A stretch of DNA of 48,846 nt from Nitrospiraceae bacterium (GCA_037442105.1 JBBIQV010000020.1:1-48846), one strand, 5' to 3'; counted from the stretch's first letter, positions 35,768-48,846 are shown. Numbers and translations are program-made. The notes: a model not told the origin generated them from the letters alone.

Positions 35768-36619
35768 TCAGCGCGGCACCCGGACCAGCACGTTGTCGAT
35801 GAGGCGAACCGTGCCGATGCGGATGGCGCCAAGCAGCACCGCATCGGACTTGATGGTCGAAACCGGTTCCAGTGTAGCCGGGTGGCAGACGGCAAGATAC
35901 TCGATCCGTGCCAGTGGTTCCCGCCGAACAGTCTTTACCATCACCTGGCGAATGTGTGCGCCGGACCTGATGCCACGGCGGATCGCCTCCGCGCCGGCCT
36001 GCAAGGTACGGTAGAGCACAGGCGCAGCACGGCGCTGTGTCGCGGTCAGGTACACGTTGCGGGAACTCAGGGCAAGGCCGTCCGATTCCCGGATGGTGGG
36101 ATGGATGACGATTCTTGTGCCGAGGTTCAGGTCTTCTACGAGCCGCTGAACCAGCACCGCTTGTTGATAATCCTTCTGCCCGAAGAGGGCCAGGTGCGGT
36201 CTTGCCAAACACAGCAGTTTGGTGACGACCGTGGCGACGCCTTGAAAATGGAACGGCCTGGCTTCGCCCTCCCATCGCCGGGCGACATCGCGCACCGTCA
36301 CCGTGGTTTGGAAACCGGAAGGATAGATCGCCTCCCTTGTTGGGATGAAGACGACATCCACACCTTCCGATGCACACAGCGCCCGATCTTGTTTGAGTTG
36401 TCGCGGGTACTTGGCCAGGTCCTCATGGGGACCGAACTGCGCGGGATTGACGAACACGCTGACGGCCAGTGCGTCGCAGGATAGGCGCGCGTCGCGAATC
36501 AGGGCGCGATGGCCGGCGTGCAGCGCACCCATTGTGGGAACAAACCCGATGGTCACGCCTTCGCGATGGAGTTGACGGCTCCAATCGGCGAGCGTTTTGG
36601 GCGACGTGATCGTCTTCAC
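35768..36619 (-). CDS. panC: Pantoate-beta-alanine ligase
   Basis: VPTMGALHAGH, SVFVNPAQF, FGQKDYQQ, DGLALSSRN, RLIDN. Confidence 0.97.
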   Translation of the reverse strand: MKTITSPKTLADWSRQLHREGVTIGFVPTMGALHAGHRALIRDARLSCDALAVSVFVNPAQFGPHEDLAKYPRQLKQDRALCASEGVDVVFIPTREAIYPSGFQTTVTVRDVARRWEGEARPFHFQGVATVVTKLLCLARPHLALFGQKDYQQAVLVQRLVEDLNLGTRIVIHPTIRESDGLALSSRNVYLTATQRRAAPVLYRTLQAGAEAIRRGIRSGAHIRQVMVKTVRREPLARIEYLAVCHPATLEPVSTIKSDAVLLGAIRIGTVRLIDNVLVRVPR

Positions 36620-37188
36620 GATCGTGAGCCGGCCGCAGCGGTGCGGATGCTGCAGTCGGGACGGGAGCCGTAACGGGAGCTTGGTTGAGGATCGAGGCGG
36701 CGCACGAATGAAGAATCGTGAAGCTCGTTCAACAAGGCCTGCATGGTCCGGCGTGATATTGGATGCTGCCAGTCATGAGCGAGTTCGACCATCGGCACGA
36801 GGACAAACCGCCTGCAGTGGAGACGTGGGTGAGGAATGACGAGGCCCTGCTCGTCGATCACGCGGTTTCCGTAAAACAAGATGTCGAGGTCCAGGGTTCG
36901 AGGCCCGTTGCGATGGACCTGATCCCGTCCGAACGCCAGCTCGATTTCTCGGCATGCCGCCAAGAGGCTGCGCGGCGTGATATCCGTTTCCAGATGCGCG
37001 ACGCCGTTCAGGAACCAGCCGTCGCCAGGCGCAGCCCCATCGTTCACCGGCTCCGTTTCATAGAGCGACGAGACCTTCACCAATTGCGAGTGCGGCAGGA
37101 GGCTCAGCAATGTAACCGCCCGGTCGCAAAAGTCCAGCCGGTCTCCCACATTCGACCCAAACCCGATAAACACCGTTTCACGCGCCAT
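36616..37188 (-). CDS. folK: 2-amino-4-hydroxy-6-hydroxymethyldihydropteridine diphosphokinase
   Basis: GFGSNVGDR, SSLYETEP, GPRTLDLDIL, IPHPRL..RRFVL. Confidence 0.96.
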   Translation of the reverse strand: MARETVFIGFGSNVGDRLDFCDRAVTLLSLLPHSQLVKVSSLYETEPVNDGAAPGDGWFLNGVAHLETDITPRSLLAACREIELAFGRDQVHRNGPRTLDLDILFYGNRVIDEQGLVIPHPRLHCRRFVLVPMVELAHDWQHPISRRTMQALLNELHDSSFVRRLDPQPSSRYGSRPDCSIRTAAAGSRS

Positions 37189-37292
37189 ACGCCAACCGTC
37201 ATTCGATTAGAAGTCTATTCTGAAAGGCGTCAAGGAACCATTATGGGAACTCATGTATCATTTCGTTCGTTTGGTTTCAACCTGAGTTTTGC

Positions 37293-37604
37293 TCAGATCC
37301 ATCCTTTCTTTGAAGCGATCATGGCCGCATCCACGCGGTTCCGTGCTCCCATCTTTTGCAGGAGATCTTGGACGTAGCTCTTGACGGTGTTTTCGCTGAG
37401 AAACATCTGGGTGCCGATTTCTTTGTTCGAAAATCCCTGGGAGATTAGTCGCAGGAGGCTGAGTTGTTGTGGGGTCAGATCAACCTGTACTTTGCCTCCC
37501 TCGGTTTCAGCGGTTCCCTCGCGCAGCTCTGGTACCACTTGGCTAACGACCTTTGGATCGATCACGGATTCACCACTCGCGACGGTCCGAAGGATTTGCT
37601 TCAA
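37293..37604 (-). pseudogene. NarL/LuxR-type response regulator, 5'-truncated by IS1380 end
   Basis: LuxR HTH (GFSNKEIG..MFLSENTVKSYV) plus the last receiver helix only; the IS terminal repeat begins immediately at 37605. Confidence 0.85.
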
Positions 37605-38482
37605 CCTGAATCCGGCGTGAAAAAGGGTGGCTTCATGGCCTCAGTCGGCTGATTTGATGCAAGGCATAGTTCCAGGCTGCTTCTCGCTGACCGCTTGCAG
37701 GCAGGGCCAAGCGGGGGCGATTGCCGGCTCGGCGAAGCTGAGCGGGCATCAACAGGATCTTGTGACGCAGGGTTTGCAGCGTGGCGGTCTGGAATTCTGG
37801 AGGCAGGCAAAGGCGCTTGAACCAATTGACAAGGTTGTAGGCCAGCAAGAGCAGATGGAAATAGGTCTCGTTGGCGAAAAAGTGACGGGTGGGGATGTTG
37901 CCCAGGGCGTAATCCCCTTTGAGCTGTTTGATGAGCAACTCGACCCCGGCGCGGTTGTTGTACAAGCGCCAGAGGTTGAGCGGCTGCAACGGCAGATTGG
38001 TGACCAGCACTTGGTAGTGGTACTTGCCGAGCTTGAAGAGAGTCAGTGGCTCCGTTGGTTCTTCGGGCTGAGGGCGACGGATCACGACGAACCGATAGCG
38101 ATGGGGCCATCGGATGGGCTGATAACAGAACTCGGCCACCTCGATACCCCGGCTGGGACTCACGTACCGCAGGTGCCCCAGTTTGCGTTTGATCGGGGCT
38201 GTGAGGCGGGCGACGATCACGAACCGGACCCGTCGGGCCTCGAGCCATTCGACCAGCGTGTGGTCGTAAAACCCTTTGTCCGCGCGGACAATCACCAATC
38301 GCACCCCGGCGGGCACTTTGGCGAAGCACGCCTTGAGCAGATCGATCGTCCCGCTGGCCGTATGGGCATCGCCGGGGCGCAACTCGCCATGCCAGAAGTC
38401 CTTGGTGCGTCCTTCGAAGCACAACAGTGGGTGATACGACGGCCGGCCCCGCTTGATCGGGTTGTACCCGACCCACGCCAAG
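37605..38482 (-). mobile_element. IS1380-family element remnant (right end + 5'-truncated transposase 37633-~38482)
   Basis: GYNP.KRG..SYHPLL, VRADKGFY, YNNRAGVELLIKQLK DDE motifs; terminal cctgaatcc at 37605 just past the stop; N-terminus and left end absent. Confidence 0.85.
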
Positions 38483-38545
38483 GACCCTGAGGGACTTGAA
38501 GGGCCGCCAGGTGCCCATGCTGCAGCCCAGCCTGTCTTGAAATTC

Positions 38546-38766
38546 CAGTCGCGGCGGCGCTCAAGCCGTTCATGAGTGAGCCGCCCGTACAAAAAGGCCT
38601 CCGCTCAATCGCTCAGAAGTTTCGTGCCCTGGAAGCCGAAGGTCCGACGTGGGTTGCGAAGTTTCTGGGCGGAGGTGGTGCTGAGACGGAATCACGAATC
38701 AAGCAGGATGCCTTCATGACCGTTCACAAAGTGTGCCGCCTCCTCGGGCTGGAAAGAGATATGTGA
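38546..38766 (+). pseudogene. Orphan 3' fragment of an AbiEii-like nucleotidyltransferase (paralogous to 48220-48437)
   Basis: VAAALKPFM.E.PVQKGL.SIAQKFRAL.AEGPTWVAKFLGGG matches the C-terminus of 47529-48437; 32-bp identical block 38635-38666 = 48309-48340. Confidence 0.88.
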
Positions 38767-38895
38767 TCCTACCAGGTCGGCAGGCCCATGCGGCCTATTG
38801 TCGAATCGAATTCTAGAACGGTGGAGGCACCCATTGATTTCACTCCTTTCGCTTGCAATCTCACTTACTCATAAGTCGCCCGAAGCAGGGGAATC

Positions 38896-38924
38896 TTGCA
38901 CTCTCTGCTGCAGGTGACTAGGAT
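38896..38924 (+). promoter_or_regulatory. Putative sigma70 promoter of the cysteine desulfurase gene
   Basis: TTGCAC-17-TAGGAT, 12 nt upstream of ATG. Confidence 0.45.
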
Positions 38925-38936
38925 AAGCGCCCTGTA

Positions 38937-40067
38937 ATGATCTATCTCGACCACAATGCAACGACGCCGGTATTGCCGGAGGTGCTGGAGGCGATGATGC
39001 CTTACTTCACTTCCGAATGGGGTAATCCGTCAAGTACATACAAGTTCGGCTCGAAGCTGAAGAGTGTGATCGAGACAGCGCGAGAACAGGTGGCGGAGCT
39101 AATTGGGGCACAGTCGCGGGAGATTATTTTCACTTCGTGCGGCACAGAGAGCAACAACACGGCGATTCATGCGGCATTGCAGGCCAACCCAGGCAAGCGG
39201 CACATCGTCACGTCGGCGGCGGAGCATTCCTCAGTGCTCAACTACTGCATGGCGCTGGAGAAGGAAGGCTACCGGGTGACTTATCTGCCCGTTGACCGCG
39301 ACGGGCTGTTGAAGCTTGCTGACTTGGAGGAGGCCATTACAGACGAAACAGCACTCGTTTCGCTGATGTGGGCTAACAACGAGACAGGCGTCTCGTTCCC
39401 CGTCACGGAAATCGCTCAACTCTGCCGAGCGCGCGGCGTGTTGTTGCACTGCGATGCCGTGCAAGCGGCCGGGAAGGTCCCTATCAACCTCAGCAACTTG
39501 CCCGTGGATTACCTGTCCCTTACTGGTCACAAGTTTCACGCACCCAAAGGCATCGGCGCGCTATACGTCCGCCGTAAAGCCCCCTTCTGGCCATTCGTCC
39601 ACGGTGGACATCAAGAGCACAACCTGCGGGGTGGCACGGAGAACGTGGCATTGATTGTCGGCATGGGCAAGGCCGCCGAGTTAGCCACTAATCATCTACC
39701 CGACTACGACAAGCAGGTGCGACCACTGCGGGATTCGCTGGAGGACGGCGTCCTGAGGACGATTCCGAACACTGAACTGAACGGCCACAAGATTCAGCGT
39801 CTGGCCAACACCACCAACATCACCTTCCACGGCATCGAATCCGAAGCGCTGCTACTCCTGCTCGACAAGAAAGGCATTTGCGCCTTGTCCTGCTCAGCAT
39901 GCTTGGCCGATTCCGATGAACCGTCGCATGTCATCAAGGCGATGAAGCCCGAAAGCGCCGCGTCAAGGCAGATGATAAGGTTTTCACTGGATACGAGTAC
40001 TGAGAAGGCCGACGTGACCGCGACGGTAGAGACTGTCCAACGGGCCGTAAGCGCGCTATGCAGTTGA
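38937..40067 (+). CDS. dndA: Cysteine desulfurase (IscS/DndA-like)
   Basis: YLDHNATT, GNPSS, NNETG, HCDAVQ, TGHKFHAPKG PLP lysine, SAC catalytic Cys; dndA assignment rests on the neighbouring dndC. Confidence 0.85.
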   Translation: MIYLDHNATTPVLPEVLEAMMPYFTSEWGNPSSTYKFGSKLKSVIETAREQVAELIGAQSREIIFTSCGTESNNTAIHAALQANPGKRHIVTSAAEHSSVLNYCMALEKEGYRVTYLPVDRDGLLKLADLEEAITDETALVSLMWANNETGVSFPVTEIAQLCRARGVLLHCDAVQAAGKVPINLSNLPVDYLSLTGHKFHAPKGIGALYVRRKAPFWPFVHGGHQEHNLRGGTENVALIVGMGKAAELATNHLPDYDKQVRPLRDSLEDGVLRTIPNTELNGHKIQRLANTTNITFHGIESEALLLLLDKKGICALSCSACLADSDEPSHVIKAMKPESAASRQMIRFSLDTSTEKADVTATVETVQRAVSALCS

Positions 40068-40074
40068 CGGCCCA

Positions 40075-40413
40075 ATGAAACTATCGGCGGACGCGGTCAT
40101 CGCCAGAGACAAGTTGACGCGCTATTTGCTGTTGCCTCAAGCGCGCGGCGACAAATCGGCTTTTCTGGCAGAAGCGGGTTACACGCTGGAATACGCCGAC
40201 CAACTGCTGCAGGACTTGCGCGCCCAGATCCTTCCTTTGGAGGCACGAAGGTTGGAATCCAACAAGTTTGGCCAGTACTATGAAATACGAGGAACGCTGA
40301 TTGGCCCAAATGGCGTGGCTTTGCCGATTCGCAGCATATGGATGACAGAACACTTGTCGGGCATCACGAAGTTCGTTACACTGATTCCCGATAAACGGGG
40401 TGCATCACGATGA
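40075..40413 (+). CDS. DUF6883-like putative toxin
   Basis: KLTRYLL, DKS.FL...GY, FG..Y.I.G.L.GPNG, SIW, FVTLIP pattern; ATGA overlap with next gene. Confidence 0.75.
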   Translation: MKLSADAVIARDKLTRYLLLPQARGDKSAFLAEAGYTLEYADQLLQDLRAQILPLEARRLESNKFGQYYEIRGTLIGPNGVALPIRSIWMTEHLSGITKFVTLIPDKRGASR

Positions 40414-40649
40414 AGTTTGAGCTCTACACGGACGTGGCGCTGACGTGCGATCTACCGGAGCATCGGCTCCGTCGCGGCGACATTGTGAAACTGGTGGACC
40501 ATCACATCGCACCCGATGGAACGGAAGGGTACTCCATTGAAGTGTTCAACGCCGTCGGCGACACCATTGCCGTTACCACCGTCCCCGCTTCCGCCCTCGA
40601 AGCCCTCCGCGAAGACGAAGTGCTCTGCGCGCGGTCGCTGGCTAGCTAG
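40410..40649 (+). CDS. DUF4926-like small acidic protein (putative antitoxin/immunity)
   Basis: VALTCDLPEHRLRRGDI..LVD...GYSIEVFNA.GDTIAV. Confidence 0.82.
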   Translation: MKFELYTDVALTCDLPEHRLRRGDIVKLVDHHIAPDGTEGYSIEVFNAVGDTIAVTTVPASALEALREDEVLCARSLAS

Positions 40650-40654
40650 GTTGG

Positions 40655-40921
40655 CTGGTCAACACCACCAATATCACCTTCCACGGCATCGAATCAGAAG
40701 CCTTGCTGATCCTGCTCGATCAGGAAGGTGTCTGCGCCTCTTTAGGTTCAGCTTGTCTCGCCAATTCCGATGAGCCGTCGCCTGTCATCAAGGCGATGAA
40801 GCCCGAAAGCGCCGCGTCAAGGCAGATGATACGGTTTTCGTTGGGCACGGGCATGCGGAGAGAGGACATCGCTACGACGGTATCAGCGGTGAAACATGCA
40901 ATCGCAACGCTCCGGGCTTGA
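40655..40921 (+). pseudogene. Duplicated 3' end (267 bp) of the cysteine desulfurase gene
   Basis: Colinear with 39801-40067 at a constant 854-bp offset; 49-bp identical block; divergent final helix. Confidence 0.9.
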
Positions 40922-40946
40922 GTCTCCCTTGATGGTGCAGTATAAA
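40918..40946 (+). promoter_or_regulatory. Putative sigma70 promoter of the antitoxin-PemK pair
   Basis: TTGAGT-17-TATAAA; AGGTG RBS before ATG 40965. Confidence 0.6.
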
Positions 40947-40964
40947 ACTGGGGTAGGTGAAACG

Positions 40965-41150
40965 ATGAGAACGCTGCAAGAGATTGAAAAGGAGATCGAA
41001 GCTTTGCCGTTGCCTGACCGGCTTCGGCTCTACAAAGACATGCCGCAGTTGATCGGCCGGGATGTCGAGGACCTCGACTGGCAGCGACTGGCGATCGAGA
41101 ATTTCTTCCAGGACGACTCCCCGGACGATCACGTCTATGACGAAGTTTAG
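40965..41150 (+). CDS. Small acidic antitoxin
   Basis: 61 aa, acidic C-terminus DDSPDDHVYDEV; overlaps downstream PemK gene. Confidence 0.75.
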   Translation: MRTLQEIEKEIEALPLPDRLRLYKDMPQLIGRDVEDLDWQRLAIENFFQDDSPDDHVYDEV

Positions 41151-41481
41151 GGCCGGGGACATCGTCTCGGTGGAGTTTCCCTTCTCTGATCTCCAGACGC
41201 GTAAGCGCCGGCCGGGGCTGGTGCTCGTCGCTGGTGATGTTGACCTCTTGATTGCCCGTATGACCACACGCCCGCCCCGTGATCCATCGGATGTTGTACT
41301 CAACCACTGGGCCGAGATCGGTTTGCCACGGGCATCCACCGTTCGCCTCACCAGGCTCGCCACGGTAGACCGGCGGCTTGTTCGCCACAACATCGGACGT
41401 CTACACCCCGAAGACAGCCAGGCGGTAGCGCAAGCCTGGCAGCAATTGGCGGCCAACGTCGTGACCGAACTGCGCGAATAA
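41137..41481 (+). CDS. PemK/MazF-family toxin
   Basis: GDIVSVEFPFSD...KRRPGLVL, GLPRAS.VRL..L.TV, IGRL. Confidence 0.9.
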   Translation: MTKFRAGDIVSVEFPFSDLQTRKRRPGLVLVAGDVDLLIARMTTRPPRDPSDVVLNHWAEIGLPRASTVRLTRLATVDRRLVRHNIGRLHPEDSQAVAQAWQQLAANVVTELRE

Positions 41482-41506
41482 AGACGTAGAGCGAACGGTA
41501 TTTCCG

Positions 41507-41848
41507 ATGAAGTTTGATCTCTACAAGGATGCAGTGCTGATGTGCGATTTGCCGGAGCATCGGCTCCGTCGCGGCGACATTGTGAAACTGGTGGACCATC
41601 ACACTGCGCCTGATGGCTCAGAGGGCTACTCCATCGAGGTCTTCAACGCCCTGGGGGACACCATTGCCGTCACCGCAGTTGCCACCTCCGCCCTCGAAAC
41701 CCTCCGCGAAGACGAAGTGCTCTGCACGCGAACGCTGTATCAGTTTGTGATGAACGACGCCGCCGGGGATCACGTGTTTTCAGTCCGCTATGGATTCTGG
41801 AACTTGCGCTCACGATGCCATGCCAAACATGCCCTGTCTGGCCAGTAG
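41507..41848 (+). CDS. Second DUF4926-like gene; homology ends at about 41737 and the ORF reads through
   Basis: Near-identical to 40410-40649 (52-bp identical block); stop lost, tail overlaps the HNH gene 3' end. Confidence 0.7.
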   Translation: MKFDLYKDAVLMCDLPEHRLRRGDIVKLVDHHTAPDGSEGYSIEVFNALGDTIAVTAVATSALETLREDEVLCTRTLYQFVMNDAAGDHVFSVRYGFWNLRSRCHAKHALSGQ

Positions 41849-42693
41849 CTGCTGTCAACAGGAAGCTGTATCTGTTTCCCACCAATCTTGTGAAGCAACA
41901 TAGCTTCGTCGCCTGATTCATGGAAACGGTCTGACGCGACAATAACCCTGTAATCATCGGTAAGCGACCACAGACCTTGGTCGAAGAGCCAGTGGGCGTT
42001 TTTGCAGAGGGCGATGCCGTTTTGCGGGTGGTTGTTGCGGCTGTCGGCAAATTGGTGAATGTGGGCCGCGTCCACGATGCTGCCGGCATCCATGGTTACA
42101 CAGCGATAGCCGGTTAGCGCGCAAGTGTAATTGTAGGCGGGAACGACGGTCAGGCGGAAGCGCGCTTCACGACCGCGCTCCCGATCGGCTTCGTAACGCC
42201 TGGCGTCGGCTTTCACAACATCGTCGGACGGGACAGACAACTGGACCAAGCCGTACAATGCTGCGCGTTCGCCGGGATCAGTAAAGTACCGGGCGATAAG
42301 GACTCGGCGCAGTTGCTTCCGGAAGTCGGCATCGTAAAGACAGGCGAGAAAGCTCTCGTCGAGTCGAGCGGCAACGGCGCGGCGGCGTTCCTGAGCGGGC
42401 TTGCCTTCCTTGTCGAACGACACCCAGCAGCCATCGCTGTGCATGTGGTAAAAGGGCAGGTGGATGTCGGGCCTCTGGGAGCGTCGTTCGGCCACGACGG
42501 TCCAGAAGGCGAGGAAGCGGAAGACAAGTTCGCCGGTCAGTGGTAGCTCGGTGCCCGTAAGGGTTCCTTCTTCGGCGAGGTCGGCGACGACCAGCAGGAG
42601 CAGGGGCTTGTGCGGGGCGATATTATGTTTGCGGTCAACCCTCAGATTCGCGGCGATCTTGAGCCAGCGTTCGTGTTGGGTTGGCGCGTTCAT
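41788..42693 (-). CDS. Sulfur-binding-domain (SBD)-HNH endonuclease, phosphorothioate-dependent restriction type
   Basis: N-terminal APHKPLLLL and LPFYH motifs as in the ScoMcrA-type SBD; C-terminal AYNYTCALTG...AAHI...NGIALCKNAHWLFD HNH domain. Confidence 0.85.
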   Translation of the reverse strand: MNAPTQHERWLKIAANLRVDRKHNIAPHKPLLLLVVADLAEEGTLTGTELPLTGELVFRFLAFWTVVAERRSQRPDIHLPFYHMHSDGCWVSFDKEGKPAQERRRAVAARLDESFLACLYDADFRKQLRRVLIARYFTDPGERAALYGLVQLSVPSDDVVKADARRYEADRERGREARFRLTVVPAYNYTCALTGYRCVTMDAGSIVDAAHIHQFADSRNNHPQNGIALCKNAHWLFDQGLWSLTDDYRVIVASDRFHESGDEAMLLHKIGGKQIQLPVDSSYWPDRACLAWHRERKFQNP

Positions 42694-42705
42694 GCGAAGA
42701 CGCGG

Positions 42706-44016
42706 TCAGTTGCGAGAGGTAGCGGAGCGACAATAGTGGTAGGCTTCCAAATCGTCCTTCAAGATATTGAGCAGGTCGTCGGGTAGGCCGTGGGTGCGGT
42801 GGCTTTCGCTGTATTCCTCCACCTTGGCGAGCATGCGGCGGAGAATGTCGGCATTGATGCTCTTCTCGCGGGCGACTGCTTCTTCCATCTCACGCAGGCG
42901 ATTCAGTTCTTTGAGATCACCGTTCATGATCACACCTCGCTGTTTGTTGAGGATGCGGGCGACGCCTCGGCCGTCGTCTGGGTCGCGCGCGGCTTTCCAC
43001 AGTTGTTGGATCAACAGCAGTTCTTCCGGAGTAATCAGCGTGAGGCCGGTGTCCTCCTGCAGCTTGAGCAGGCGTTTGAGGAGTTCGCGACGGCCTTCGA
43101 TGGTGAGGGGACCGGGGCCCTCGTTGCCGTTCATGCGGCGGTCGTCGCGCCGCCCGTTGGCGGGGTTGCGGAATTCGAGAAGCGTTTCCCGGAAGGCGAG
43201 CAGGTGTTCCATGCGTTCGTCACCAGCAGCAAGCAAGCCCTCGCTGGCTTTGTCGCGCTCGACGACGGTGCAGGTCCAGCAGCCGAAACGGGAATTGCCA
43301 CAACTGGGAGTGCTGGTGTCAATCTGGATGGGGCATTCGCCGTTCGAGGCGTTAGCGTAGAGCTTATACAGCGGACGGTTGTCACCGCCCCATGGGTTAG
43401 GCTTTTGCAACAGGTACGCCCAGACCTCCTCTGTGGAGAGGAACTCGATGGGGTTGGATACCCAGACGCGAGGAAGGTCTGGGTGACGACGCAGACCCTT
43501 GCGAGTCTCAATTCCTGCCATGGTCTGGGCTCGCGTCGAGCTTTCGGCACGCCTGGCTCCTAGATGCAGGATCGCCTCACCCCAATGGCCAAGCCGCTGA
43601 TTTACGAATGCGTTGACCGGATCAATTTTCATCCGTTGGGTACACCAGCGGAAGGTGCGATTGGGCGGTGGATAGCCGCGACCGATGATGTTGACCCAGA
43701 ACGACTGCTCGGGCGGTGGTTTGAGCAAGTTGACCTCGATGTTGAGCCCATTCTGCTGAGAAAACTTGTGCATCCGCGCGAGAGCGCTTTCGACCATTTC
43801 GACGATCGCGGGGATTTCCACACGAGTGTCCGTGCACAGGACCGCGACCGGTTTTTTCCGGTTCTCCGTCGGCACGGCTAATACCGCATCAAATATCAAG
43901 GATGCCAACATCGTGCTGTCTTTTCCGCCGCTGAAACCAACCAGCCAAGGGCGGTTATCCTCCGAATACAGCTCGCGGAGATTGTTCCTGATTTCCTGGT
44001 AAACCGAGGCAACCAT
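42706..44016 (-). CDS. dndC: DNA phosphorothioation sulfurtransferase DndC (PAPS reductase family)
   Basis: PWLVGFSGGKDS, IIGRGYPPP...FRWCT.RMKIDP, GARRAES..RA, CGNSRFGCWTCTVV. Confidence 0.92.
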   Translation of the reverse strand: MVASVYQEIRNNLRELYSEDNRPWLVGFSGGKDSTMLASLIFDAVLAVPTENRKKPVAVLCTDTRVEIPAIVEMVESALARMHKFSQQNGLNIEVNLLKPPPEQSFWVNIIGRGYPPPNRTFRWCTQRMKIDPVNAFVNQRLGHWGEAILHLGARRAESSTRAQTMAGIETRKGLRRHPDLPRVWVSNPIEFLSTEEVWAYLLQKPNPWGGDNRPLYKLYANASNGECPIQIDTSTPSCGNSRFGCWTCTVVERDKASEGLLAAGDERMEHLLAFRETLLEFRNPANGRRDDRRMNGNEGPGPLTIEGRRELLKRLLKLQEDTGLTLITPEELLLIQQLWKAARDPDDGRGVARILNKQRGVIMNGDLKELNRLREMEEAVAREKSINADILRRMLAKVEEYSESHRTHGLPDDLLNILKDDLEAYHYCRSATSRN

Positions 44017-44023
44017 AGGCGCG

Positions 44024-44052
44024 AGTATGCCTTTGATGAGGGATGTTTACAA
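44024..44052 (-). promoter_or_regulatory. Putative leaderless promoter of dndC
   Basis: TTGTAA-17-CATACT, 7 nt before ATG; no SD. Confidence 0.5.
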
Positions 44053-44620
44053 GAGCGGCTTTCAACATGATTCGGCCATGGAAGAGGTTGCTCCCTGATG
44101 CGAATTTGGAAGAAGGGATTCCTTTACAGATGGCTGAGGAGGCCAGAGTCGTTCTTTGCTTGGCCTGCCCGACCAAATCGTGCACCAAGAGGATAAGGAT
44201 GGGGCATCAAGACTGTTGGCTGATTTGCCCGCGCCTACCACCAATTGCTACCTATTCCCCGGAGCAGCAGTCCCTAAACTTTTTTCTCGTGGCGGTCCTT
44301 GATAATTGGCGCAGGCAGGCTTACACGAGGACCGGAGGCGGTTACCGTACCAATGGATTCGTTCCATCAATTTCTCAAGCAGCCGGCTTTTGGCGTCTGT
44401 AGGGGCGTTCTGCTCCGTGACAGTTTTCTTCTCGTTCTGTATGCGGCCTGGGGCATTGTCTGTTTGGCCGCCGGATGCCAAGAACAGGGTTTTGTCTATC
44501 TTTGGGAACCGTTCGTGGTGATGCCGCTGCTCATCTCCCTCCGAAGAGAGCTGCTTCCTCGACCTATTCCAAATGCCTACGATTGCCCCGTGTGAAATAC
44601 GGTTTCGCTCAATACACGTA

Positions 44621-45625
44621 TCACGAAAGAAGGTAGCGCCCCGACTTCTTGGTTCCGACCCGTTGGACGAGGCCGGCTTCGAGCAAGGGCTTGAGTAGAT
44701 CCATCGCTCCTTGCTTCGACACGCCGATGCCGTTGCGGATTTCCTGCGGCGTCAGGCTTTTCCGATCTCTCAGCAGACGGAGTAACTGCTCTTGTTTGGG
44801 GCGTAGCACAATTTTCTTTGGCCCGGCACGTGCGGTGAGATGCTGAATGCGATCCCACACTTGTTCAAGAGTCAGATGCAAGGCCTCGGCACTATATTCC
44901 AACCATCCGCTGAGGTCGCCACCCTGCCTGCGCACCCCGGCTAGTGCGTCGTAGTATCTCGGACGATTCTCCCAATAGACTTCATCGACGGAACAAATGT
45001 GATGCGTATCAAATCCACGCCGATAGAGTTCCCAAAGCGCAAGCGCTCGGCCTGTTCGTCCGTTTCCATCCGCGAACGGATGGATGTCCTCGAATTGATA
45101 ATGGACAATGGCCGACGAGACGACCGGTGACCATTTCGAAGACTGCTCGTTCCACCATTCCAACAGCTCAGCCATCAACCCGCTGACCAAGTCAGGGGAA
45201 GGGGGCGTATATCGGCCTACGTACACCTGAATGCCGCGGTATCGGCCGGCTTCTCCCTGGTCCATCACCCCTTTGGCCATGATCGTGTGGAGTTTCAAGA
45301 CGTCCTTCTGGGTGATCGGCTTCTTGGCGACATGCTTCTCAATGAAGCGAAGACCGGCGAGGTAATTGAGCACCTCTCGGGTGGCGCGTGGGGGCGCTGT
45401 CGGCAGGGATTGCCCCTCTTCCAAGAGGCGGACTTGTTCCAGCGTGAGCGGATTGCCTTCAATGGCGGTGGAGCTGTGGGTGTTTCGGATGCGCGCGTCT
45501 TTTTGTAGGGTGGGAATCCAGGGGACTTGCACCATCGCGGCGAGAATTGTTTCCCGAAACGCGGCGATTGCTTCGATCGTGGTTAAGAGATGCGCGGTAA
45601 TGGTGAACGTCGGGTGCAAGGCCAT
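44621..45625 (-). CDS. Fic family protein with C-terminal winged HTH
   Basis: HPFADGNGRTGR Fic motif; STAIEGN inhibitory (S/T)xxxE(G/N) motif; C-terminal HTH-like segment. Confidence 0.93.
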   Translation of the reverse strand: MALHPTFTITAHLLTTIEAIAAFRETILAAMVQVPWIPTLQKDARIRNTHSSTAIEGNPLTLEQVRLLEEGQSLPTAPPRATREVLNYLAGLRFIEKHVAKKPITQKDVLKLHTIMAKGVMDQGEAGRYRGIQVYVGRYTPPSPDLVSGLMAELLEWWNEQSSKWSPVVSSAIVHYQFEDIHPFADGNGRTGRALALWELYRRGFDTHHICSVDEVYWENRPRYYDALAGVRRQGGDLSGWLEYSAEALHLTLEQVWDRIQHLTARAGPKKIVLRPKQEQLLRLLRDRKSLTPQEIRNGIGVSKQGAMDLLKPLLEAGLVQRVGTKKSGRYLLS

Positions 45626-45632
45626 GGTTGGC

Positions 45633-45674
45633 AGGGTAAAGATAAGTCAAGTATAAGTCAAGTTATGAGTCAAC
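45633..45674 (-). promoter_or_regulatory. fic promoter with three tandem 11-bp repeats
   Basis: ataagtcaagt x2 + tatgagtcaac; minus strand TTGACT-17-TACCCT, 7 nt before ATG. Confidence 0.6.
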
Positions 45675-45734
45675 CTCGAAAGCAGGCTTGCGAAGGTCTG
45701 GCGGCGTGGGCGGGAGGTGTGTGAAGAGGCGACT

Positions 45735-45950
45735 TAGCCCGCATTATTCATGAACGTTTCTACTGCAACCGCCGATACGCCGCTGCGACCAGCCTGGACG
45801 CGGCTGGCGCTGCGCCCAAGCAGGCGGGCTCGCCGCTCGGTCGGTCAACATACTGTTTCAAGTATGCCTCCCTCCCTTACGGCTCCGCGCGCCTGTCTCG
45901 CCTGGCGTCTTGGCGGTTTCGTCACGAACCGTCATGAATAATGCGGGCTA
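45735..45950. mobile_element. MITE-like element, copy 3 (opposite orientation to copies 1 and 2)
   Basis: Perfect IR tagcccgcattattcatga / tcatgaataatgcgggcta; interior aligns to copy 1 once its insertions are removed. Confidence 0.8.
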
Positions 45951-46039
45951 GGATAATGCGATCAAGAGGGCGCGTCCGGAAGAATCAGAATCGTAAGTGC
46001 CGGCATACAGAAGAAAGGACCACTGGAGGTATTGAATAT

Positions 46040-46064
46040 CCCCGCGCACATTTGAGGCGCGGGG
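46040..46064. terminator. Hairpin downstream of the tRNA-Lys 3' fragment
   Basis: ccccgcgc-9 nt-gcgcgggg. Confidence 0.45.
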
Positions 46065-46081
46065 TCGAACGAAGTTCGGTT

Positions 46082-46126
46082 TGGTGGGCCGTGCAGGGGT
46101 CGAACCTGCGGCCCGCTGATTAAGAG
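46082..46126 (-). other. 3' half of tRNA-Lys(CTT): integrative-element att site
   Basis: Minus strand CTCTTAAtcagcgggccgcagGTTCGAcccctgcacggcccACCA; no D-arm or 5' acceptor strand upstream. Confidence 0.85.
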
Positions 46127-46421
46127 AGCGTTCAGGGCGGTTTTGGCAAAGGCTTGATTGGACTCTGGTTTCCCCGTTTTTCTGACAAATCAGCCTCTTG
46201 CGCGCCTTCTATTGGTTCTATCCAGTCTAGCTTCTCTCGTTTTTCGACCCTGTCTATCACAAAGTATCACACTCATGTTCAGTGCGAGGCCTGCTGAGTT
46301 TTTCGAAACCGCGCCGTCAGTGGCCCACTGAGCGGAACTCAACGGGCCAGGCGCAGAGGTCTTGTGAGGGGGTGCCGAGTCGGTTTCCAAACAAAGGACC
46401 TCTTGTGCAGGAAGAGAAAGC

Positions 46422-46473
46422 TTGACAGACTTTTACCTGATTGGCTATTTTGCCCGTACGGTAAAAATAGCCA
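46422..46473 (+). promoter_or_regulatory. Promoter and palindromic operator of the type IV TA operon
   Basis: TTGACA at 46422; near-perfect IR tggctattttgcccgtacggtaaaaatagcca at 46442-46473. Confidence 0.65.
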
Positions 46474-46486
46474 TTTTGGTAAAAAT

Positions 46487-47521
46487 ATGCCGACGGAGAG
46501 CCAAATCATCGCCAGCCTAAATCAACGGCTCCCCGAGCTGCTCCCGGCCCTCGACGTGGAGGTACAGCGGCCTCGCCGGGAGGATTCTTGGGATCTTGCC
46601 CTGAAGATCCGAGCGGCCGGGACGACGCGACGGGTCATCTGCGAGGTCAAGTCCGTGGGCGAACCACGCTACCTGGCCCAAGCGATCACCACTCTCATGC
46701 GCACAACCCGGAAGGACCCCAGACTGTATCCTCTTGTGGTCGCTCCCTACATCTCACCGGAAGGGCAACGCCTCTGCCGTGAGGCCAAGGTGGGATATCT
46801 CGACCTGGCAGGAAACGCGTTTCTTCGTTTCGACGGGGTGCTCGTGGACCGGGCAAGCCCCAAACCTCCTCCGAGAGCAAAGACCCGGCTGAGGCGGCTG
46901 TTCGCCCCCAAGTCTTCGAGAATTATCCGGGTGCTCCTCGAACAACGAGGGGAGAGCTGGACACTGGCCCGCCTGGCCGAGGAGGCGACCGTCAGCCTGC
47001 GGACCACCCACCTGGTGATCAACGCGCTTGAGGAGAAGGCGTTTGTCGAGAAGCGGCGCGGAGCGATCATGCTTCAGAAGCCCGGGGAGCTGCTCGATCT
47101 GTGGGCCCAAGACTACAACGTTGAGCAGAATCGGCAGCACATGTTTTACACATTCGTCCGGAGTCCCGGCGAGCTGGCGGCCAAGCTCTGCGCCTACGCC
47201 GTGAGCAAGAAGGAGACAGTGGCCTTGACCCTCCATAGCGGAGCGGCGTTCGTCGCGCCCTTCGTCCGATCACCGGACGTGCATGCCTACTTCGCGGGCG
47301 ATCGGGAGCGGCTCGTGAAGGCTCTGGATCTCAGACCCGTGGAATCCGGCGGCACCGTCCATCTCCTTGAGCCTTACGATGAGGGGGTCTTCTATCGGAT
47401 GCAGACCATCCGAGGGGTCCGTGTGGTCTGTAACACGCAGCTCTATCTCGACCTTATCACTTACCCGGCGCGCGGACGCGAGCAGGCGGAAGTGCTTCGC
47501 CGCCAGAAGTTAGGCTACTGA
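46487..47521 (+). CDS. AbiEi-like antitoxin / transcriptional regulator (type IV TA)
   Basis: EVKS..EPR, APYISP, GYLDLAGN, central wHTH, LLDLW, C-terminal QLYLDL...RGREQAE. Confidence 0.8.
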   Translation: MPTESQIIASLNQRLPELLPALDVEVQRPRREDSWDLALKIRAAGTTRRVICEVKSVGEPRYLAQAITTLMRTTRKDPRLYPLVVAPYISPEGQRLCREAKVGYLDLAGNAFLRFDGVLVDRASPKPPPRAKTRLRRLFAPKSSRIIRVLLEQRGESWTLARLAEEATVSLRTTHLVINALEEKAFVEKRRGAIMLQKPGELLDLWAQDYNVEQNRQHMFYTFVRSPGELAAKLCAYAVSKKETVALTLHSGAAFVAPFVRSPDVHAYFAGDRERLVKALDLRPVESGGTVHLLEPYDEGVFYRMQTIRGVRVVCNTQLYLDLITYPARGREQAEVLRRQKLGY

Positions 47522-47528
47522 CTACCCA

Positions 47529-48437
47529 ATGCCGCGACCACGGACTGTAGATGATTACCAGGACGGGATCACGGCGGCCTCCAGATCAGGCCTCGCCGAA
47601 GTGATGACAGCCCTCGGTGCCTATAGAGACGCGCTGGTCCTCATCGGCGGTTGGGCTCCGTATCTCATTCTGGAACAGCAGGGAGAGCAACGCGCTTTTC
47701 AGGCTAAGACTCCTCTGGATACGGGATTCGAGGTTGAGTTTGTCCACGTCGGGTCGATTGACATCGATTTCGTCGTGAATCCGGATCTGGTGAATGCAGA
47801 GAGCTACGCCACGATCGTAGAATTGTTGCTGGATCGCGGCTATACACCCTGCGCCGATTCTCTCTTCCAGTTCGAGAAGACCATTCGCTCCCCCCAAGAC
47901 GGCCAGGACTACCTGATCCGTGTGGACTTCCTCACGCCCAGGCCCTTGGCAGGCCAAGGGCGTGCCCATCGCCACCGGCAGGTTCAACGGGACCTCAAGG
48001 CTCGCACGTTGGAGGGTGTGGAAGTCGCGATCACTCACTACTTCTGGTATGAGCTGGAGGCTCGGCTTCCGGATGGAGCGAGTGCACTGGTGCGTCTCAA
48101 GGTGGCCGATCTCGTCGCCAGTCTGGCCCTGAAGGGAATCGCCATCGGGGAACGGTATGCGGAAAAGGATGCCTACGACATCTATGCGCTTTGTGCCCAC
48201 TCACGCGGAGGTCCCCAAACAGTAGCGGCGGCGCTCAAGCCTTTCATGAATGAGCAGCCTGTGCAAAAAGGCCTCCACTCAATCGCTCAGAAGTTCCGTG
48301 CCCTAAATGCCGAAGGTCCGACGTGGGTTGCGAAGTTTCTAGGCGGGGGCGATCCGGGAACAGAGACACGGCTCCGGCAGGATGCTTTCATGACGGTGCG
48401 TGAGATCTGTCGAGTCCTTGGAGCAGTTGCTGACTAA
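47529..48437 (+). CDS. Nucleotidyltransferase, AbiEii-like toxin (type IV TA)
   Basis: LIGGWA, GSIDIDF (DxD), VDFL, LK..A...R..EKDAYDI. Confidence 0.82.
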   Translation: MPRPRTVDDYQDGITAASRSGLAEVMTALGAYRDALVLIGGWAPYLILEQQGEQRAFQAKTPLDTGFEVEFVHVGSIDIDFVVNPDLVNAESYATIVELLLDRGYTPCADSLFQFEKTIRSPQDGQDYLIRVDFLTPRPLAGQGRAHRHRQVQRDLKARTLEGVEVAITHYFWYELEARLPDGASALVRLKVADLVASLALKGIAIGERYAEKDAYDIYALCAHSRGGPQTVAAALKPFMNEQPVQKGLHSIAQKFRALNAEGPTWVAKFLGGGDPGTETRLRQDAFMTVREICRVLGAVAD

Positions 48438-48643
48438 CGGGATCGGCAGTCTCGCACGAGCTGAGACTGCTGAAGCACATGAAAAGATCCTCGGTCCTTT
48501 TCTGGCTTTCCCGCGAGCATCCTGCGCTCCGATGGAAGGCGCTCAACGTGCGACAGCATCGCGAGGTGCAGGAAGAGGTGTAAGCGAAGACGCGAGAGCG
48601 TTGAAAGACTGTCGGTGCCGTTTTGACTTCGAACAGCGGGTGA

Positions 48644-48846
48644 CTAAGGCTTAGGAGCGAACTCATCGGCAGATCCCCCCAGCGGTCGCGTGCCCAGCTT
48701 GAGAAGAGCGCCGTTCGCTTCACTCGCCAGCGTGTAGACAGGCTTCTTCCATGAGATGAGAACCCGGCACAGTTCAAAAGTTTTGCTGTCCGGAGCGGCG
48801 TAGGGAACGACAATGTGTTCGGCCAGGGCGGCCACAACGCGATTGC
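48644..48846 (-). CDS. DprA/Smf (SLOG)-like protein, C-terminal part (5' end outside window)
   Basis: Frame open to the window edge with (R)NRVVAALAEHIVVPYA..SKT and N..LLKLG, resembling DprA RNRIIAGLS. Confidence 0.65.
   Translation of the reverse strand, partial: NRVVAALAEHIVVPYAAPDSKTFELCRVLISWKKPVYTLASEANGALLKLGTRPLGGSADEFAPKP

Follow-up and report, generated by a model that had tools for sequence, protein, structure and literature searches.

A sulfur-binding-domain HNH nuclease gene in the place of dndD: evidence for a proposed two-state dnd locus in a Nitrospiraceae bacterium and its relatives

The DndACDE proteins write phosphorothioate (PT) marks into DNA, and enzymes of the ScoMcrA type, which join a sulfur-binding domain (SBD) to an HNH domain, cut PT-modified DNA. 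How, then, can a gene of the first kind be followed within a few base pairs by a gene of the second? The question is raised by a contig from a Nitrospiraceae bacterium (GCA_037442105.1, JBBIQV010000020.1:1-48846), where dndC is followed 12 bp later by an SBD-HNH gene and a dndA-like cysteine desulfurase gene faces the two. This stretch of 48,846 nucleotides, analysed at its full length and called the window here, is the entire contig C20 of a 62-contig assembly that is 86.7% complete. The analysis described below suggests that the nuclease allele is likely the mark-destroying state of a repeatedly swapped locus, and not a new minimal marking system.

The dndC gene (42706..44016, minus strand) is intact and encodes a sulfurtransferase of the 3'-phosphoadenosine 5'-phosphosulfate-reductase type with 436 amino acids (aa); it scores 385.6 bits against TIGR03183 (cut-off 290.4) and matches PADLOC DndC with an E value of 1.6e-126. 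The SBD-HNH gene (41788..42693, minus strand) lies at the position of dndD and encodes a predicted PT-dependent type IV restriction nuclease of 301 aa. The match to HNH_2 has an E value of 6e-12, the N-terminal half is an SBD by sequence (PDB 8H0L, E 2e-11), and for the predicted fold (predicted local distance difference test, pLDDT, of 76) the Foldseek ranks 1-12 are all SBD-bearing chains, the best with E 1e-5; sequence and predicted fold both bear out the SBD. The sulfur pocket, formed by H28, K29, L79, P80 and H83, aligns to H25, K26, L75, P76 and H79 of Hga, with all five residues identical, and these are kept in 103, 107, 90, 109 and 99 of 109 homologues, respectively. In the HNH domain, aligned to TagI and VcaM4I, the putative catalytic residues H211, N225 and H234 are present in 109, 109 and 108 of the 109. 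The protein reaches 120.4 bits with NF045808, below the curated cut-off of 180, and belongs to a divergent clade; no SAD/SRA domain was matched in it. It is predicted to be a promiscuous PT-dependent cutter. The SBD of Hga is promiscuous, and Leu in place of Tyr is reported to help it bind varied PT contexts (PMC10602919). Regarding mobile elements, plasmids gave only distant homologues (28-33% identity in the best 15 of 85 records), phages gave only DndC-like proteins at <=45% identity (15 of 20 matches listed), and two loci were found in viral contigs, neither with dnd genes.

The dndA-like gene (38937..40067, plus strand) lies on the other side of the locus. It converges on the pair from 1,720 bp beyond the nuclease stop, in agreement with the facing orientation and the distance of about 1.7 kb given in the preliminary description, and is syntenic and convergent in related loci as well. 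The product scores 483 bits with PADLOC DndA and falls under the NCBIfam cut-offs for NifS and DndA. Its catalytic-loop motif reads LSCSAC, against SSGSAC in 37 of 39 others; the changes S317L and G319C lie beside the catalytic cysteine and are seen in none of the 39 other full-length DndA copies (n=40 with the window), and the window's DndA is possibly impaired. A second cysteine desulfurase (41%) is encoded on contig C42 of the same genome.

The remaining writer genes, first reported as unrecognisable in the window, are not found in the rest of the assembly either. Family profile and clade alignment detected no dndD in the window or in the 86.7%-complete assembly, and dndB, PbeC and DndH were likewise not found there; the same is true of dndE and DndE-HerA, a weaker blank since the DndE control matched nowhere. 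The sole match of the SspD model in the assembly is dndC itself. An assembly artefact at the dndC-nuclease junction was considered and is ruled out by a contig from run X1, possibly the source sample, that crosses the junction with 0 differences.

The promoter-like sequence described upstream of dndC fared less evenly. The element (TTGTAA-17 nt-CATACT; 44024..44052, minus strand, 7 nt 5' of the dndC ATG) matches the consensus at 8 of 12 positions, and a promoter scan upstream of dndC made no call, but a comparable element appears in 8 of the 11 upstream regions displayed for relatives, loci of the dndD type among them. Because such an element also precedes dndC in dndD-type relatives, it is likely the original promoter of the dnd operon, and it is predicted to drive dndC and the nuclease now.

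Two states of the locus in relatives

The closest relatives of the window's DndC are in Nitrospira-type genomes. The sample consists of 76 genome loci found with this protein, some of them kin and so not independent. Twenty-three have the order dndC-dndD-(DndE-HerA)-variable genes-convergent dndA and no SBD, and 32 have an intact SBD-HNH gene after dndC, with dndD absent in 24 and cut in 8. In none of the 76 are dndD and the SBD-HNH gene both intact (Fisher p 1e-7, kin being counted here as if independent). The rest are three loci with nuclease fragments and 18 without nuclease or complete dndD, many of the latter at contig ends. Relatives with dndD directly after dndC exist, and the adjacency of dndC and nuclease is not particular to the source genome. 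The dndD stumps are varied, covering residues 1-54/69 or 1-370/435, or starting at 260, 316, 357-387 or 482. At the level of genomes, a full SBD-HNH gene of the window's clade occurs in 1 of 28 dndD genomes, on a small contig of a fragmentary bin, and full-length DndD occurs in 1 of 33 nuclease genomes (G098), as part of an unrelated canonical system.

Metagenomes extend this picture. The best 80 of at least 545 nuclease loci were taken, with a query seeded from dnd loci, and among the 66 with >=300 bp upstream, 44 have a dndC or dndD piece immediately before the nuclease. At L086 and L105 a nuclease of the window's clade directly adjoins a 5'-truncated dndC that belongs to a different Dnd family. 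The DndC clade was present in eight of 401 genomes drawn evenly from the phylum; of these, six continue into dndD, one stops at a contig end and one is the window, so that the nuclease state is the minority in this draw.

Probable recombination at the dndC 3' end and its alternatives

The relation between the two states can be read from sequences close to the window. In the public run X2, a contig of 3,826 bp aligns to window 42745-44410 with 28 differences in 1,666 (98.3% identity) and then diverges after LKDDLE; it has no nuclease and, aligned to the dndD locus L021, is colinear and in register through dndD. X2 has window 36587-38283 on a separate contig with 1 difference, and no cover over the nuclease, and X3 holds the dndC-dndD contig too. 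Besides the window junction, run X1 contains a deeper dndC (91%) that overlaps the junction contig at 42745-42774. In the same run, dndD and DndE-HerA are represented by contigs with a depth similar to that of this dndC, which suggests that they are linked to it. The overlap encodes the last conserved dndC codons, LNILKDDLE (42745..42774, minus strand), the presumed crossover zone. L080 and L082 switch within the same motif: identity rises from about 70% over dndC to 97-100% over its last ~25 codons and the nuclease gene. In the pairs L089/L136, L026/L027 and L013/L014, dndC is 91-96% identical as against 41-56% for the nuclease.

Nearest neighbours and trees point the same way. For 20 of 48 loci, dndC and nuclease have the same nearest neighbour, and for 14 of 22 loci dndC and dndD do. 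On the DndC tree the states are interleaved, with 14-16 changes of state, at least nine of them forced by starred branches, and monophyly of the nuclease-linked dndC genes is rejected by the approximately unbiased test (p-AU 1.8e-5) on a quick mixture-model tree; two duplicates and four long branches are excluded from the trees. The correlation between dndC tail distance and nuclease distance was uninformative. The left junction recurs and the dndC tail is co-transferred with the nuclease, yet left and right cassette ends vary between loci. Both alleles stand behind near-identical dndC and are never jointly intact in the sampled loci, the cassettes are mosaic at the dndC 3' junction, and the swap has several origins.

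The anchors appear to decay beside the nuclease. A broken dndC occurs at nine of the 33 nuclease loci and at none of the 23 dndD loci (p 0.007; omitting L076, with a nuclease fragment upstream of dndC, and L047, at a contig edge), and a broken dndA at 7 of 20 and 0 of 18, respectively (p 0.009; omitting L015). In the metagenome loci 9 of 34 dndC genes next to an intact nuclease are broken, two of them cut to ~60 codons (L139 and L154, with a distant DndC, are omitted). A conserved-column count of dndC relaxation was discarded as biased by the outgroup make-up.

We consider it probable that this is a locus of two states, writing PT in one and cutting PT DNA in the other, which are swapped by recombination between the dndC and dndA anchors. 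The slot between dndC and the convergent dndA would hold either dndD with the DndE-HerA fusion or the SBD-HNH nuclease, and the alleles would replace each other through homologous recombination that starts in the conserved 3' end of dndC. The nuclease, transcribed from the dnd promoter through dndC, would restrict incoming DNA that carries PT marks or the means to write them. Because an Hga-type pocket would bind most PT contexts, and because ScoMcrA together with dndA-E is reported to cause cell death and to select for deletion of the dnd island (PMC3009677), a broad PT cutter could settle in a dnd+ cell only if the event that brought it in also removed dndD (or dndC). A fragment carrying the end of dndC would achieve this in a single recombination, removing the writer and inheriting the promoter, and a cell with the nuclease allele, its writer having been removed on entry, is predicted to be PT-free. 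What keeps dndC and dndA in place would then be chiefly their use as promoter and as anchors for recombination; writer alleles would renew them, with decay between renewals. The paradox of a PT writer beside a PT cutter would be resolved, as in the window's clade the two would be alternative alleles, not partners; this would be a natural and testable case in which exchanging cassettes within the operon of the writer settles an epigenetic conflict. Of the two explanations offered at first, displacement of dndDE by an incoming anti-PT nuclease thus finds support on a broader scale than proposed, since it recurs across phyla and near-identical dndC runs into dndD elsewhere. A more tentative extension, which we find rather doubtful, is that the nuclease homes by means of an epigenetic mark and not of a sequence: once inside a PT-writing cell it would cut the marked chromosome, and repair through homology in dndC and downstream would install it over dndD. 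If this were true, a writer would become a hunter of writers, with the mark erased, and the dnd operon would be a natural reversible writer/eraser switch over at least five phyla.

Several observations weigh against exchange between two states. Loci were placed in the dndD class for being intact, and this criterion is biased toward clean loci; X2 and X3 appear to be the same data deposited twice; some nuclease-linked clades have diverged in step with their dndC; and 21 of the 66 metagenome nuclease loci lack any dnd piece in the vicinity. G098 carries the window's nuclease clade together with an intact, unrelated DndACDE. With long-read assemblies removed, breakage drops to 4/25 versus 0/19 for dndC (p 0.12) and 2/14 versus 0/14 for dndA. 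Where dndC is intact in nuclease loci, pairwise ratios of nonsynonymous to synonymous divergence (dN/dS) are 0.02-0.15, like those of dndD loci; private dndC changes average 1.5 in nuclease loci and 1.1 in dndD loci (p 0.33); and the lineage ratio (N/S) is 0.45 versus 0.38 (p 0.14), with no relaxed selection. As truncated dndD stumps, which are dead, have equally low ratios of polymorphism (pN/pS 0.028/0.307 for L052/L153 and 0.004/0.176 for L091/L112), we infer that the constraint on dndC reflects its history in writer alleles and renewal by recombination.

The same constraint argues for a different view, which we regard as rather unlikely, namely that selection keeps DndC beside the nuclease for a role independent of DndD/E. 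DndC might regulate the nuclease, or it might arm it by writing PT with DndA/IscS, either at a low level or when triggered by phage. Not only is intact dndC unrelaxed, its frame is retained in 24 of 33 nuclease genome loci; the window's DndC has zero private changes at near-invariant columns, the two genes are tightly spaced, and tdpC provides a precedent, as it is reported to make PT by itself (PMC12914056). In one long-read assembly (L031:9986-12208) DndC and SBD-HNH even form a single frame of 740 aa, but compared with its neighbours this fusion seems to stem from a single base missing ahead of the stop, possibly an error, and it was given no weight. Other results go against a separate role for DndC. 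The window's dndC is 98.3% identical to one that runs into dndD, and once 1,576 tests are allowed for, the two states cannot be told apart at any column of DndC (best p 2e-4). The nuclease stays intact where dndC is frameshifted or reduced to about 60 codons, and L112 has a broken dndC where that of the near-identical L091 is intact. Low pN/pS is shared by the dead dndD stumps, the dndC and nuclease partners are freely swapped, and the catalytic-loop motif of the window's DndA is altered. A complex prediction for DndC and SBD-HNH scored 0.00, gave no verdict and was counted neither way. The minimal mark-and-cut or abortive system, the other explanation offered at first, is not supported by most of these tests, the unrelaxed intact dndC being the point in its favour. 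The gene arrangement of the preliminary description is confirmed, and its interpretation as a whole is partly supported.

One-way decay, in which dndD was lost for unrelated reasons and the nuclease is a passenger in a defence hotspot where PT is gone, with no active exchange and no return, appears improbable to us. It would account for the 17 of 76 loci with neither nuclease nor intact dndD, for the metagenome nucleases without dnd pieces nearby, and for the other occupants of the slot, among them Lamassu, Ppl-like, NsnA-like and methyltransferase genes. However, no other occupant is nearly as common as the nuclease, which at most loci lies <=~50 bp from either a dndD stump or the end of dndC, with dndC/D directly upstream in two thirds of the metagenome loci (44/66); it brings its own dndC tail across lineages and replaces other nucleases behind near-identical dndC. 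Finally, we find it very improbable that the nuclease serves as the restriction arm of a functioning Dnd system, as in the model of Rakesh et al. 2024, with dndD and dndE lost to incomplete assembly. In favour of this, the assembly is only 86.7% complete, an intact DndACDE occurs in G098 alongside a distant NF045808 nuclease, and Rakesh et al. report wHTH+SAD+HNH proteins in Dnd loci of 698 taxa and put missing DndD/E down to fragmentary assemblies (PMC10853773). Against it, one contig carries dndC, nuclease and dndA with no room for dndD, the X1 contig runs over the junction without a difference, the nuclease has no SAD/SRA domain, and its clade is accompanied by full DndD at none of the 76 loci and in one of 33 genomes. 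Because the restriction-arm and poor-assembly readings fail for the window's clade, counts of dndC or of its neighbourhood can overstate PT systems.

In G098 itself, L224:4824-17108 contains an intact dndA…dndC-dndD-dndE facing a CxC/Pbe-type block with an NF045808 nuclease above the cut-off; this nuclease is of another clade (26% identity) and does coexist with the writer.

Contents of the slot and of the surrounding island

The slot, with dndC as its left anchor and dndA as its right, is a defence hotspot that also contains uncharacterised open reading frames (ORFs; clusters c32, c36, c51 and c54). In related loci (L014, L028, L062, L065 and L046) it holds Lamassu, PD-Lambda-5-like, Ppl/TrlF-like, NsnA-like, TIR and methyltransferase genes. 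In Acidobacteria loci (L014:11407-11694, L030, L073 and L076) an insertion exactly at the dndC stop brings in a small GIY-YIG gene and the DNA that flanks it.

In the window, the 1.7-kb gap between nuclease and dndA contains DUF6883, two copies of DUF4926, a PemK-like pair and a duplicate of the dndA 3' end, none of which the preliminary description mentions. Next to dndA lies a DUF6883-DUF4926 pair (40075..40649, plus strand), found after dndA in dndD-type and nuclease-type loci alike, followed by the duplicated dndA 3' end (40655..40882, plus strand; 80% to 39801-40028). This duplication is an insertion scar at the dndA 3' end, with like scars in several related loci. DUF6883-DUF4926 is flanked by dndA and a duplicated dndA 3' end in the window and in eight other loci (L098, L102, L104, L108, L110, L126, L155 and L004), and behaves as if it integrated at the dndA end. 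A second such pair is found in genome G000 (contig C35, 31450-32330), at the contig end and beside a short ORF, the end of which resembles what we take to be an integrase C-terminus. Beyond the scar, a small ORF (40896..41150, plus strand; no Pfam match) overlaps the start of a PemK/MazF-like toxin gene (41137..41481, plus strand; PF02452 E 1.3e-9, start read from the sequence), a passenger of the slot, and is by position a putative antitoxin. The second DUF4926 copy (41505..41737, plus strand), 85% to the first and with its stop lost, abuts the 3' end of the nuclease gene.

At its left edge the island has a DDE transposase fragment (37633-38592, minus strand) and a duplicated 3' end of a nucleotidyltransferase gene (38546-38747, 81% to 48220-48421); in a congener (G001) a different ORF, which is aminotransferase-like, follows after window 37183. 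The source of the duplicate is an AbiEi-like/nucleotidyltransferase pair (46364-48437), the last 200 bp of which recur before dndA, and X2 contigs join the nucleotidyltransferase 3' end and its duplicate site before dndA. On the far side of dndC are also a Fic-HTH gene (44621-45625; PADLOC SoFic, E 2e-60) and an element of ~215 bp (45735-45950) that resembles a miniature inverted-repeat transposable element, with 47-nt inverted ends and no Rfam match; about 30 similar stretches exist in the source genome and many in related Nitrospira-family genomes. Searches for a tRNA in the window and for Rfam matches in 36500-48846 both found nothing and thus pointed to no integration site.

Comparison with known systems

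All parts of the locus are of known kinds; what is new is the recurrent allelic switch between writer and cutter at a shared crossover. We found no description of a dndD/SBD-HNH swap in the literature covered, most subscription journals lying outside it, and Table S4 of PMC7461809, with ~65 dnd-adjacent cases, may list such loci. EcoWI and SprMcrA, two-domain SBD-HNH enzymes of NF045808, have the same SBD fold with HNH and the HK and (Y/L)P motifs and likewise no SRA domain, and their group is likewise reported to be excluded from intact dnd (PMC7461809). The window nuclease differs in falling under the family cut-off (120 versus 180 bits) and in having the pocket Leu of Hga, not Tyr. According to Lutz et al. 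2020, dnd genes lie near <3.6% of SBD-HNH homologues, with non-functional clusters among the possible reasons (PMC7461809), whereas the window's clade stands at dndC/dndD in 44 of 66 loci, a share biased upward by the dnd-seeded query. Hga of Hahella ganghwensis (8H0L, PMC10602919) is the best sequence and fold match to the window's SBD, and differs in its nuclease domain, which is PD-(D/E)XK where the window protein has HNH. The window's clade constitutes a family of candidate PT-dependent nucleases with broad specificity, which might serve to map PT sites.

On the side of the writers, Rakesh et al. 2024 describe a Dnd subtype with DndE fused to HerA/FtsK (PMC10853773). With this DndABCDE type and the 23 intact loci the window shares its DndC clade and the layout of dndC and convergent dndA; it differs in having no dndD, dndE-HerA or DGQHR gene. 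The same authors present three-domain SBD nucleases (wHTH+SAD+HNH) as partners of the writer (PMC10853773), whereas the window's clade excludes it. dndCD is regarded as the minimal set for Dnd PT (PMC12914056), and in TdpABC, as reported there, TdpC makes PT without DndD; the window's DndC, in contrast, is not distinct from DndD-coupled DndC, given 98.3% DNA identity and interleaving on the tree.

Related conflicts and variable loci have been described before (PMC12707154, PMC2993543, PMC8989522, PMC5398294). A writer and a cutter of its mark are likewise incompatible in ScoMcrA versus dndA-E (PMC3009677), McrBC versus methyltransferases (PMC2993543) and PcaRCI/PcaRCII (PMC8989522), and the variable defence locus of S. 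suis likewise shows turnover of defence genes at one locus (PMC5398294). Unlike those conflicts as published, writer and cutter here share one slot, with writer genes as its flanks and a recurring crossover inside dndC.

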